Assembly: GCA_964016885.1 (NCBI GenBank)
Contig: OZ024762.1
Coordinates: 24,490,001-24,554,000, forward strand
Length of the DNA stretch: 64,000 nucleotides
Origin: Eledone cirrhosa
Taxonomy: Eukaryota
Direction: 5' to 3'
Of the stretch, positions 1,591 to 60,924 are shown piece by piece. Position 1 is the stretch's first letter. Each line of letters starts with the position of its first letter. Made by a program: the position numbers and the translations under genes. The notes beneath the pieces are model-generated. The model was not told where the DNA came from. It worked only from the letters and a program-made list of their open reading frames with translations, and ran no database searches.

Positions 1591-1651
1591 TATTCTATTA
1601 CATATATTTCAAGGGTACCAAAACTTTGGTATGCTCTCATCAGATAAAATA
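1591..1651 (-). ncRNA. Type I hammerhead ribozyme motif (inverted partner of 1794-1854)
   Basis: Reverse complement reads TATTTTAT-CTGATGA-GAGCATACCAAAGTTTTGGTACCCTT-GAAA-TATATGTA-ATAGAATA. Confidence 0.72.
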
Positions 1652-1793
1652 CAAAGTTTGTTTTATAAATTTTGACATAACACAAGTAGAAAAGATACCT
1701 TAACGGTTCAAGTTTTTCTTGGATATCCAAGAAAAACTTGAACTGTTAAGGTATCTTTTCTTGGTTATGTCAACATTTATAAAACAAACTTTG

Positions 1794-1854
1794 TATTTTA
1801 TCTGATGAGAGCGTACCAAAGTTTTGGTACCCTTGAAATATACGTAATAGAATA
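1794..1854 (+). ncRNA. Type I hammerhead ribozyme motif
   Basis: Stem I TATTTTAT/ATAGAATA; core CTGATGA (1802-08); stem II GAGCGTACCAAA-gt-TTTGGTACCCTT; GAAA (1835-38); short stem III; predicted GUA cleavage after 1846. Confidence 0.75.
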
Positions 1855-2084
1855 AATATAGTTTCCATTTATTTAATATCTTTGCATATTATACTCCAGA
1901 AAATTTGTCGAGTGGTCTGAACCAGTTATAAACATTTATATTTGTTGAATTACCAACAAATTGAATATCCCTTTTGCTTATATATATATATATATATATA
2001 TATATATATATATATATACATATATATGTACGTACATATATATTTATACACATACATATTTATACACATACATACATACATCCA

Positions 2085-2606
2085 TATCTAAATCTGCCAA
2101 TACTCCACCCTGATTACACCTTCAGATTTATGCCTGTGATTATTGGGGCACTGGGATATGTTAGTAACTGCCTCAATACAAATCTTGGGAAGCTGGGCTT
2201 CACAGGAACAGAAAGAACACAACTAGTTAGGAAATTACAAGTATAATCCATTAATGGAACAGTAAAAATATGTAAAACATTCCAAAAATGTTACATCTAA
2301 TAACTGCATATACACATGTACAGATACAAAGCATGTACACATGCACACATACAACTCAAAACATACACATCCAGACATACAATAACATCCATATCTACAC
2401 ATATCTACTTAGTTGATGTTGTGTAAATTCCAATGAGAGAGTCTTGTGTCTATGTTAGAAGAATAACAATAACATCCATATCTACATACATATCTACTTA
2501 GTTGATGTTGTGTAAATTCCAATGAGAGAGTCTTGTGTCTATGTTAGAAGAAACCGACTCTCTCTCTATTGATGGGGGGTTGTTGTGAAATTATAAAACC
2601 AGAAGA
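2085..2606 (+). mobile_element. 3' end of a second RLE-type non-LTR retrotransposon; 3' UTR has an about 87-bp direct duplication (2381-2550)
   Basis: FMPVIIGALGYV...LVRKLQV*SINGTVKICKTF matches the RLE C-terminus; flanked by (CATA)n. Confidence 0.7.
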
Positions 2607-3651
2607 ACATACATACATACAAACATACATATATACATACATACATATATGCAGACATACATACACACATACATGCAGACATACATGCAGACATACACAC
2701 ATACACACATACACACATACACACATACATGCAGACATACATACATACATGCAGACATACATACATATTTACACGCATATATATATGTACATATATACAT
2801 ACACACATGTGCATACCTACATACATATATGCATATATATTTATGTATATTTGTATATGTATATATATATATTTATATATATATATGTGCGTGTGTGTAT
2901 ATATATATATATACACACACACACTTGCATACACGCACGCATGTAAGCATTTACAGGAAGATGGTTAAATAAAGGCTTCCTTCATATATACACCTTAAAC
3001 AAGCCTCACATCGGCACCACACCCCACCCCAATCTTTACATGTGACCCAGGATCTTCACCGTAGTCCTATAATCACCAATACTCATCCCTATAGCCCTAA
3101 CCTTCTCACAGCTGATCCCCTCACCAGCCATAGCACATCTATCTTACATATACATACACACACTCATACACTCTTCTCTTTGCCCTGTCTTTTTTGAGGA
3201 CATGGTGATGACCAATTTTAGCCCTTTTGATACCTGCCCCCCAAAAAGCTTTTTTTTCGTTTTCTTTTTCTTTTTCTTCACCCACTTATTCCTGGGAGGG
3301 TCGTGGGGGCCAGAGTCCTCAAACACTCCTTCCAGCAGGCCCTGTCAGAAGCAACCATCTCCAACTGATCCAGCTGGATCCCCAAGCGTGACCAGCCAAA
3401 CTCATGGATGTTATCCAACCATCTTGCTCGGGGTCTACCCCTGTTGGTTTTGCCTGTAAAATCTGCCCAGCAATTCTTTCTTAAGACATTCTAACCACAT
3501 GTCCGTGGTATCAGAACTGTGATCTCTCAATTCGGAGAAGTAGCAGCTCTACCTGGAGTGGCTCTCCGATTTACGCACTTTATTGAGTAATGTTACTCCA
3601 AAGAACCTTCGGAGGAACCCCATTTCAGCTGCTTGTATTCGCGATCGTATT

Positions 3652-4315
3652 CTCCACCATCCGCTACCATTCTCTACCATCCTCCACCGTCCTCTACCAT
3701 CCTCCACCGTCCTCTACCATTCTCCACCGTCCTCTACCATTCTCCACCATCCTCCACCATCCTCCACCATCCTCCACCATCCTCTACCATTCCCCCCATC
3801 GTCCTCTACCATCCTCCACCGTCCTCTACCATCCTCCACCGTCCTCCACCATCCTCCACCGTCCTCTACTATCCTCCACCGTCCTCTACCATCCTCCACC
3901 GTCCTCCACCGTCCTCCACCGTCCTCCACCGTCCTCCACCGTCCTCCACCGTCTTCTACCATCCTCCACCGTCCTCCACCGTCCTCTACTATCCTCCACC
4001 GTCCTCTACTATCCTCCACCGTCCTTTACTATCCTCCACCATCGTCCACCGTCTACCATCCTCCACCGTCGTCCACCGTCTACCATCCTCCACCGTCCTC
4101 TACCATCCTCCACCGTCCTCTACCATTCTCCACCGTCCTCTACCATCCTCCACCGTCCTCTACCATCCTCCACCGTCCTCCACCATCCTCCAGCGTCCTC
4201 CACCATCCTCCAACGTCCTCCACCGTCTTCTACCATCCTCCACCGTCCTCTACCATCCTCCACCGTCCTCCACCGTCCTCCACCGTCCTCCACCATCCTC
4301 CACCGTCCTCTACCA
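3652..4315. repeat. 10-bp-unit minisatellite (TCCACCGTCC/TCTACCATCC)
   Basis: Direct tandem periodicity; followed by a 17-bp GA-rich array at 4408-4525. Confidence 0.95.
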
Positions 4316-4812
4316 ATATATTTATTTGCCTTGTGATACAACTGAACAGCCATCGGCTGCAACATAATATTCCAATGGAAATTATTGTCAAGAGGCCTTA
4401 CAAAAAGAGGAGGGAGGGTGTAGAGGAGGGAGGGTGTAGAGGAGGGAGGGTGTAGAGGAGGGAGGGTGTAGAGGAGGGAGGCTGTAGAGGAGGGAGGGTG
4501 TAGAGGAGGGAGGCTGTAGAGGAGGAATACATCTAGAAGTGAGGAATTGGTAATCCTTTGAAATTAGCTCTGTTATAATTAGATCTGCAGAATTATGCTT
4601 TGTTCCTCACAAAATAGTGCCAGCAATCCAACAAAAGCTATCTGTCTACCACTGTCTGTCTGTCTAGTTATCTATCTAACCATCAATCAGTTTATTTAGC
4701 TTTCTATCTATCTTATCTATCTATCAAACCATCCTTATCTATCTATCTATCTCTATCTATTAATTTATTTAGCTTTCTATCTATTTTATCTAAATATCTA
4801 TTCCTCAATACA

Positions 4813-58783: not shown

Positions 58784-58844
58784 TGGAGTGTATCACCAAG
58801 ACCCCTTCTTAGCAGCGACATATGCAGCAGCTGATCGATATCAA
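58784..58844 (+). CDS. RBFOX: RBFOX exon (GVYHQDPFLAATYAAADRYQ)
   Basis: ttttcag acceptor with upstream ctgac branch-like site, gtaagt donor; phase 2 in, 0 out; resembles the VYQD/YDPFLAA segment of the Fox-1 C-terminal domain. Confidence 0.9.
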
Positions 58845-59861
58845 GTAAGTGAACCCCTAATTCTCTCCTCTTTGTGTTGTTAATGTTTAACTCTAACGTT
58901 AGCTCTGATCCCTAATCAATTCTACCCCTCCCCTACTTTCCTCCCTGATGTTTTTACTGATATTTAACCCCAAATTTTCCTTAATTTGGCAGATCCCTAA
59001 TCAATTCTAATCCTGCCCTTTTTTCATTTCTGTTACTTTTCCCTTATCTAGCAGATCCCTAATTCAGTCTTCTCTGGCCCTATTTTACTTTATATTTTTG
59101 TCCTTATTTAGCCCCTGATTGGCTCTCATCCAATAGATCCCTAATCCAGTCTACTGTAGCCCTATTTTCCTCTATGATAATTTTGTTGTTGTTGAACCCT
59201 AGGTCTGCTGTGATCCAGGAGTCCCACCCCTATATATAATATATGACATTCCAGGCCATAACTATCCCCTACCTTTTAATAGTTCTAGAAGCAACCCAAG
59301 ATGTGGTTCTGGTTCTCAGCCCCATCTAGTTAAGGGCCGCCTGTGCCGAGATGGTGGTGGTGGTGGTGGTGGTGGGGAGGGTGCATCTGACTCATGCCAC
59401 CATAGAAAAATAGATGCAGGATGATGATGTTCATCATCATCAGTGGTGCAGTGCTGGTGGGGGAGGGGGGGGGGGGGTGTGCATATGCACTACACCCCCT
59501 AAAAAAATATTGAGTTTGGCGCGCCCATTTGGCCTGTCCCTCCTTATAACGGAGCCATCCAGTTCCACACTGTAAATGTTGGTGTTAGGAAGGGCATCCA
59601 GCTGTAGAATACCCAGCTAAATTTAGTCTTTGTCGGAGCAAGGCACAGTGTGGCCAATTCTGGTCAAATTTGCCTCCCAGCATGGACAACCTGTTTAACC
59701 CTTGCAAGCATGGGAAATGGAAGCTAAATGGATATGATGATGATAATGATAATGATGTTGGAAAATCATGAACGTTTGCAGCCCATAAAAATGATAGGAG
59801 CAATATATTTATCTTGTGATGATGATGGTGGGGGCGATGAACATGTGTATATTTTTGTTTG

Positions 59862-60400
59862 CTGGATTGGCAGTATTGTTATTGCCCTTTACTTTCTGAG
59901 TTCAAATCCCACCGAGGTCAGCTTTGCCTTTCATCCTTATGGCGTTGATAAAATAAAGCACCAGTAACACACTGGGGGCAAATTTAATCGAATTTCCCCT
60001 CCCCCAAAATTGCTATAAAATTGCCATGTGCCTATAGTAGAAACAATTATTATTATTATCATTATTATAAGTAGCAGAGAGATTAGCAGTATCGGTAGAG
60101 GGTCGGACGCCATGCTTTGCAGCATAGAGTTATGCCCCTTTACGGTCTGAGTTCAAATCCCGCCGAGGTTAACTTTGCCTTTCATCCTTACGAGGTCGAT
60201 AAAATAATGCAAAGGTCACGTACTGGGGTCTATTTAATCGACTTTCACCTCCCCCAAAAATTGCTGGCCTTGTGACTATACTAGAAATCATTATTTATAA
60301 GTACGAGTAATGCACTGGGGTCGATTTAATCAAATCTCCCCCCTCCCTCCCCGCCCCCAAAAAAACTTTGCTGGCCTTGTGCCTAAATCAGAAACCATAA
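59862..60400 (+). mobile_element. SINE family A cluster ending about 25 nt before the 60425 exon acceptor
   Basis: Three SINE bodies/fragments in tandem. Confidence 0.82.
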
Positions 60401-60424
60401 TTTTTATTTTTCTCTATTTTGCAG

Positions 60425-60522
60425 CTTGTTACAACCCAGCCATATGCAGCTGCAGGTTACGCAGCCGCGACACGCTATGCAATTCCCACAGTAGCAGCAA
60501 CAGCAGCCACGTATGCTGCTGG
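60425..60522 (+). CDS. RBFOX: RBFOX exon (LVTTQPYAAAGYAAATRYAIPTVAATAATYAAG); gene continues beyond window
   Basis: tttgcag acceptor, gtaagt donor; phase 0 in, 2 out; Ala/Tyr-rich like the Fox-1 C-terminal domain. Confidence 0.88.
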
Positions 60523-60843
60523 GTAAGTTCCCCTTTTTTTTATTTTTTATTACCAGCCCCTGTTCCCCCCTGTATTTTTTTTTTCATTTACGTTTTGTTT
60601 TTGTTGATTATGCCAAAAAGATACGTTGTTCTTCCTACCACCACTACCACCAACACCACCGCCTCCATCATCGAATTTACCCCATCCCTTAACCTCAACC
60701 CGCCACCTCGAAGAAGTATAAACCTCTTGCTAGATGTCAATGTTTTCCATATATATTCTAATCAATTAACTCAAAGAAATTCTTTGATCTTTAATCAACC
60801 AGTCAGGTAACCAACACACACATATATATATTTATCCATATGT

Positions 60844-60924
60844 ATTTCGCCTGATGATATAACTGATAAATATGGATTGCACTTATGTAAGATTGTCAGT
60901 CCATGAAACCTGTGGTTGCACAAT
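60844..60924 (+). ncRNA. Degenerate hammerhead motif with long stem II
   Basis: CTGATGA at 60851; ACTGATAA/TTGTCAGT stem II; GAAA at 60905; CC-tgt-GG-TT stem III; weak stem I. Confidence 0.5.

Follow-up and report, generated by a model that had tools for sequence, protein, structure and literature searches.

How did a stretch of 64,000 nucleotides from Eledone cirrhosa (assembly GCA_964016885.1, contig OZ024762.1, positions 24,490,001 to 24,554,000; hereafter the window), which covers exons of an RBFOX gene, come to be scattered with what look like hammerhead ribozymes? A sequence-only reading, made without database searches, had listed 13 such sites and ascribed them to non-autonomous, ribozyme-bearing retroelements lying in RBFOX introns. 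We consider it highly probable that the motifs come from dispersed repeats whose 3' ends contain type I hammerhead sequences, five of these repeat families being linked to Penelope-like elements (PLEs), and that the copies in the window are likely the remains of reverse transcription that ended prematurely. It remains to ask whether these ribozymes matter to the elements that spread them, or indeed to the gene that hosts them.

Hammerhead motifs in the window and across the genome

All 13 listed sites were confirmed, none more than a few bases from the position first given, and each derives from a hammerhead and belongs to a multi-copy family (ten families, A to J; Table 1). With a strict type I descriptor, four motifs were recovered in the window (1591-, 1794+, 17449- and 45571-), against a mean of 0.01-0.04 and a maximum of 1 in 500 dinucleotide shuffles. 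Loosening the descriptor added 21338+, giving five motifs against 0.10-0.12 in shuffles, and a second descriptor, which gained 21338+ and lost 1591-, again gave four against 0.03 (100 shuffles). The comparison with dinucleotide-shuffled controls that had been proposed thus puts the complete motif far in excess, at about 100-fold over shuffled sequence. At the family level the motif (CUGANGA, GAAA, NUH and stems I-III) is complete in A, B, C, D, F, G and J.

Seven of the sites had been read as full motifs. Four of these hold under the strict descriptor and 21338+, which has one stem II mismatch, under the looser one, whereas 8736+ and 60844+ are decayed: the former differs from its family G, whose hammerhead has a canonical 6-bp stem I and 4-bp stem II, by three mismatches, one per stem, and the latter keeps only 2 bp of stem I and has a broken inner stem II. 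The partial or variant status ascribed to the other six was borne out, with GAAA lost at 8085+, a 5' half at 33671+, no CUGANGA box at 9708 and 27462, no stem I at 40615-, and at 33406+ a core variant shared across its family. Intact motifs therefore make up only four or five of the 13 sites, the others being decayed, truncated or variant, and the density of one motif per 6 kb first proposed becomes, for intact motifs, about one per 16 kb. Two features had escaped the earlier listing: a second, decayed family D hammerhead at 21098(-), and the position of six sites inside fold-back inverted repeats.

Could these be chance matches in AT-rich, low-complexity DNA? The CTGANGA box by itself does occur at chance level (20 in the window, 18.4-19.2 in shuffles); of the nine further boxes in the window, six have no relatives in the fetched loci and the remaining three fall within repeats in which the box is not conserved. 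Nor did Rfam return a hammerhead at gathering score in 12 family loci, where one tRNA was the sole match. An Rfam scan of the window gave none among the matches listed (150 of 459), mostly microsatellite-driven microRNA matches, and an exact-repeat search of the window gave microsatellites only. Set against this are the excess of the complete motif, the membership of every site in a multi-copy family, and a single core signature found 61,560 times in the genome against 11 for its reversed control. Chance, which we would have granted next to no probability, is already refuted by the shuffle, random-sample and signature counts.

That signature, a 15-base core shared by families A and C, occurs 31,030 + 30,530 times (5 + 6 for the reversed control). 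A sample of forty 10-kb stretches taken at round coordinates (400 kb) held 25 motifs, one of them a microsatellite artefact, against 0.13 in 15 shuffles; this is one per 16-17 kb, the same density as in the window (24-25 in 400 kb, 4 in 64 kb). As the sample held 13 A/C signatures where about 8 were expected, it runs high, and the extrapolated genome total is on the order of 100,000-200,000 hammerhead motifs. Further hammerhead families, absent from the window and with stem III palindromes of 8-10 bases, were seen in the random-sample loci L210, L211, L195, L223 and L224.

One search of the species' own genome (3.0 Gb) was made for each of the ten families, with up to 40 candidates scored in each, and all ten returned dispersed relatives, the first-look candidates numbering from 22 to 2,995. 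In the family alignments the 3' end is fixed, halting at (TA)n or running into a tail, and the 5' ends vary; most copy ends adjoin (TA)n tracts. The tail of about 90 bases found at one end in family A exceeds the 30-40 bp described for such tails in PLEs. An inverted partner lies upstream in 14 of 30 loci of A, 10 of 24 of C, 11 of 24 of E, 7 of 20 of D, 4 of 20 of F, 4 of 16 of H, 3 of 16 of G and 3 of 14 of J, and in none of 24 of B or 14 of I, counts that take in the window copies and in which a few fold-backs are counted by both arms. In family C, 33 of the 52 matches listed, the window copy included, are identical over 156 bases and lie on many contigs, and to judge by this identity the family is very young.

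Penelope-like reading frames and the origin of the copies

The linkage to reverse transcriptase (RT) and GIY-YIG open reading frames (ORFs) that had been proposed as a check is present: longer copies of families A, B, C, D and E, five of the ten, carry PLE coding sequence upstream, and H is weakly linked. By their homologues and motifs, on which the assignment rests because Pfam gave nothing in four of four PLE ORF pieces, A, C and E are Hydra-type and B and D Neptune-type. Long family A copies hold a broken frame for RT and endonuclease (EN) about 1.2 kb before the hammerhead. One of them, L032, covers residues 1-751 of a 759-residue relative and has a repeat-ORF-repeat layout (pseudo-LTR, after long terminal repeat), with a 349-bp direct repeat (98%) and a hammerhead at both ends; L033 and L035 show its inverted form. 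The frames of C and E, also RT plus EN, are related to that of A. The 3' untranslated regions (UTRs) measure 1.4 kb in A and 1.1 kb in C; that of E, about 2.4 kb long and rich in microsatellites, lies between frame and motif.

The A, C and E frames have the CxCX5C linker and the CxxC and CxH motifs, with no CCHH, as do the C-terminal EN+ PLEs of the Hydra clade (Craig et al. 2021, PMC8557442). DKT is clear in A and an RWR-like motif is present in E and its relatives, DKT/RWK being broken or not covered in other copies. An Apostichopus protein (P0113), the start of which matches by eye the Hydra-1_Ajap text in the supplement of PMC8557442, gave tblastn matches at E 6e-59 to A, 1e-33 to C and 1e-32 to E. 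DKT (in A), (TA)n targets and a hammerhead near the 3' end are likewise common to the Hydra clade, which includes Hydra-1_Obim of Octopus bimaculoides, although the hammerhead listed for that element differs from those of A, C and E. The elements here also exceed the '<3 kb' given for the clade (PMC8557442), owing to their long 3' UTRs (1.1-2.4 kb), and the core of family E is non-canonical.

Families D (L118, L122; EN with the C-terminal RT region) and B (EN, L215) have the CX2-5CxxC linker and CCHH, motifs that do not separate Neptune from Nematis. Like Neptune-type PLEs, they have this endonuclease C-terminally, and beyond it come a 3' UTR and a minimal hammerhead in which one additional base precedes stem II (PMC8557442); unlike them, B and D would, if active, cleave after U (GUU, CUU). 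A further PLE family, with another endonuclease type and its own minimal hammerhead about 390 bases downstream, was seen at L109:2499-3560, with a relative in the random-sample locus L218.

The window itself holds no Penelope ORF, as had been noted: tblastn gave 0 matches at E<=0.05. The best named relatives of the retroelement protein of this genome come from Argonauta hians. Because five families continue into PLE coding sequence, the window copies are read as truncated ends of autonomous-type elements. The label 'non-autonomous' thus fails for A, B, C, D and E, and could apply to F, G, I and J. Family E had for a time been taken for a 1.5-kb non-autonomous element, an idea overturned by longer copies with an ORF.

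How might such stumps arise? A PLE protein with RT and GIY-YIG domains would nick AT-rich or (TA)n DNA and copy its own RNA from near the 3' end, and this copying would mostly abort within a few hundred bases, as aborted target-primed reverse transcription, with a second, inverted copy often laid head to head. Because the hammerhead lies 60-200 bases from the 3' end, almost every stump would keep it. In master elements selection would maintain the hammerhead, which, dimerised via the palindromic stem III, would cleave tandem or read-through transcripts; cleavage would matter, if at all, in these master transcripts, the intronic stumps being passengers.

Alternatively, the copies could be non-autonomous retrozymes, that is, short units without coding sequence that build tandem arrays, give rise to circular RNAs and rely on the enzyme of a PLE. 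Such elements in metazoans (non-LTR retrozymes; PMC7229834, 10.64898/2026.07.22.740005) share with ours the type I hammerhead, the small dispersed repeats and the tie to PLEs, from which a 2026 preprint derives animal retrozymes (10.64898/2026.07.22.740005). Family G would fit, as its hammerhead is canonical and its copies share no more than about 220 bases upstream of the core, and F, I and J are likewise without an ORF. However, retrozymes are defined by tandem non-coding units, and the copies in this genome are either solo or inverted, with coding sequence in five of the families. No direct repeat spans the hammerhead in 16 G, 20 F or 24 E loci, and no head-to-tail array spans the motif in B, C, E, F, G or H loci; direct repeats occur in 2 of 20 family D loci. 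Heavy 5' truncation would also yield a short shared upstream region, and B and E seemed to lack an ORF until longer copies were examined. The tandem-unit layout being found in none of the sampled families, the earlier mention of retrozymes was not upheld, and we regard this explanation as unlikely.

Possible selection on the ribozyme, and the variant cores

Does the hammerhead itself behave as a selected part of these elements? Between the UTRs of A and C, alignment is confined to low-complexity DNA, a single AT-rich patch of 53 bases and a 15-base stretch of stem I and core. The anchor occurs 147 times in the fetched loci, 138 of these with the 3' half, in a set biased to A and C in which overlapping loci were not merged. 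Among 79 distinct A/C-like motifs, changes in stems II and III are double-sided (stem II pair 2, A-T in 54 and G-C in 15; stem II pair 3, G-C in 54 and A-T in 17; stem III pair 3, A-T in 70 and G-C in 8). Neither of these stems played a part in choosing the set; the counts are of sequences, not events, and stand for few independent events. For family C, folding predicts a homodimer in the form of the classical double hammerhead, with a gain of 12.1 kcal/mol over two monomers. The earlier description of Penelope-type type I hammerheads is supported as regards the diversity and high copy number of the families, the palindromic stem III and the covariation of the stems.

Several points weigh against the picture of PLE stumps with a selected, dimer-cleaving ribozyme. 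Changes in stem I, which was partly used to select the set, are one-sided only; predicted dimers of the window A and D copies pair via stem II, not stem III; and family B forms no stem I in the fold model. Upstream walks from F, G, I and J reached no ORF in the fetched loci, much of their output being self-matching and uninformative. The link for H is a degenerate PLE endonuclease just ahead of the repeat in one relative, and that for B one long copy plus one partial. Every ORF copy seen is broken, and no intact master was found.

Two families depart from the consensus core. In E, 19 of 30 loci have a readable core: CCGAAGGA in 11, CTGAAGGA in 2 and six singletons, one of which is canonical. 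There is an extra G in the CUGANGA box and mostly U4C (numbering after PMC3088659), and in the fold stem II is closed by an A-C mismatch. Family I lacks stem I and has, in 13 copies, GACA in 10, GATA in 2 and GAAA in one, the window copy; C at position 4 is also frequent in family F, the loop II of which is shared with E.

It may be, then, that in some families the hammerhead no longer cuts and persists in the terminal repeat only as a structural element or a hitch-hiker, PLE copying needing no cleavage. The near-absence of canonical cores and the mismatched stem II in E, as well as the GACA and missing stem I of family I, are consistent with this; an insertion after A6 gave low activity and U4C reduced activity (Perreault 2011, PMC3088659), and PLE insertion in vitro did not require cleavage (PMC11167929). 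On the other hand, the A/C lineage holds core, stems and palindrome while its UTR diverges, E still has stem I, GAAA and a perfect stem III palindrome, and natural core variants can be active in vivo (PMC3088659). We lean somewhat against a dead ribozyme in these families. More broadly, we would tentatively propose that, within a population of some 100,000-200,000 motifs, E and I have been amplified with consensus-breaking cores, either as new working variants or as PLEs spreading with a dead ribozyme. If so, E and I beside the intact, young C would make the purpose of PLE hammerheads, which is described as unsettled (PMC8557442, PMC11167929), testable within one genome; the very young family with identical copies on many chromosomes, the covarying sister families and the variant-core families form a resource for side-by-side comparison of cleavage.

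Much of this layout is already known: hammerheads in PLEs, opposite-strand pairs, many families per genome, and a hammerhead in an Octopus Hydra family. The minimal hammerheads of Cervera and de la Pena 2014 (PMC4209133) share with ours type I, a palindromic stem III, many families per genome, mostly solo truncated copies and opposite-strand pairs 100-700 bp apart; their monomers were inactive and their dimers weak. What is new here is the copy number and the two amplified families with non-canonical cores. Counts of about 4,000 in the coelacanth and about 9,000 in Xenopus tropicalis were called remarkable (PMC4209133), where we find 61,560 signatures in one lineage, a rough comparison as the methods differ. 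No genome-wide hammerhead count for an octopus was found in the literature searched, and Lunse et al. 2017 and the supplements of PMC4209133 may hold such data; the main text of a 2026 O. vulgaris repeat annotation (PMC13282606) contains neither 'ribozyme' nor 'hammerhead', and PMC8967140 does not contain the word 'ribozyme'.

The RBFOX host gene and other features of the window

The RBFOX context of the earlier reading holds, with an RNA recognition motif (RRM) exon and further likely exons on the forward strand (Table 1). The sites between 23358 and 60425 are intronic, and those before 23266, together with 60844, are probably so.

Table 1. Hammerhead-bearing repeat copies and RBFOX exons in the window
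Feature	Position	Strand	Details
Family A (Hydra-type PLE) head-to-head fold-back	1542-1978		Left arm 1542-1736 (-), right arm 1713-1978 (+); tail on right arm alone, end at (TA)n tract
Family A hammerhead	1591-1651	-	Core intact, one stem II mismatch; predicted cleavage after 1599
Family A hammerhead	1794-1854	+	Core intact, 8-bp stem I, imperfect stem III palindrome; predicted cleavage after 1846
Family J old fold-back	7942-8192		Hammerhead core at 8085 (+) without GAAA
Family G solo end	8724-8999	+	Hammerhead copy 8736-8779
Family F fold-back	9618-9774		Only 3' half of hammerhead
Family B (Neptune-type PLE) solo end	17368-17497	-	Intact minimal hammerhead 17449-17484, GUU triplet
Family D (Neptune-type PLE) fold-back	20773-21585		Hammerhead 21338-21380 (+), decayed partner core 21098 (-)
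RBFOX RRM exon, 93 nt	23266-23358	+	Pfam RRM_1, E 3e-9; fixes host strand
Family F solo end	27402-27524	+	Truncated directly after CUGANGA box
Family E (Hydra-type PLE) fold-back	33138-33552		Tail on left arm alone; variant hammerhead 33406-33506 (+)
Family J remnant, small fold-back	33623-33704		Hammerhead 5' half, core 33671
Likely RBFOX exons	36914-36974, 55406-55553, 60425-60522	+	
Family I solo end	40515-40705	-	Core at 40642, stem I absent
Family C (Hydra-type PLE) very young (judged by copy identity) solo end	45526-45701	-	Between TA tracts; intact hammerhead 45571-45641, predicted cleavage after 45579
Family H old end	60844-60926	+	Decayed hammerhead

Might the hammerheads have been retained, or co-opted, as regulators of RBFOX that cleave its pre-mRNA? 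Nine sites lie on the RBFOX sense strand, and the human RECK and C10orf118 genes have conserved intronic hammerheads (PMC3088659). Yet the motif density equals the genome average, leaving no specific tie between the motifs and RBFOX; the sense copies are broken or inside fold-backs, copies decay away from their families, and both solo motifs passing the strict scan are antisense to the gene, although two cases prove nothing. We find such a role very improbable.

As to the fold-backs, those of A and D have a hammerhead in both arms, and when folded with 350-base flanks their cores are paired to the inverted arm (unpaired probability 0.00-0.01), from which the inverted copies are predicted to mask the ribozyme. 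Returning to the reading of the copies as PLE stumps, host pre-mRNA is likely left uncut by them because they are single, decaying, antisense or predicted to be locked in long hairpins. For RBFOX their significance is small, as they would be ordinary transposon stumps at average density; perhaps the head-to-head copies would form long intronic double-stranded RNA, a possible substrate for RNA editing.

TGCATG occurs just twice in 22.5-24.2 kb, once on either side of the RRM exon: within its 3' splice site at 23257 and within its 5' splice site at 23360. A 93-nt RRM exon with flanking TGCATG presumably corresponds to the self-repressed exon 6 of vertebrate RBFOX genes, and the pair suggests deeply conserved RBFOX autoregulation. 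Skipping of exon 6 removes half the RRM and gives a dominant-negative form (preprint).

Other repeats are also present. The 40 bases at 55844-55883 match flanking sequence of the family A reference copy and are possibly an isolated tail or unrelated flank. An interspersed repeat of about 320 bases has three copies (39866-40187, 56299-56612 and 58093-58398), the first with a CTGAAGA at 39965 that is not conserved in its relatives. Fragments at 51386-52075 (-) resemble the 3' part of a non-LTR retrotransposon frame and are also found in locus L113. Finally, minisatellite arrays lie at 1-1113, 11734-12720, 16716-17058 and 19893-20366, with units of 72, 31, 40, 112 and 105 bases, some of them assembled from pieces of interspersed repeats.

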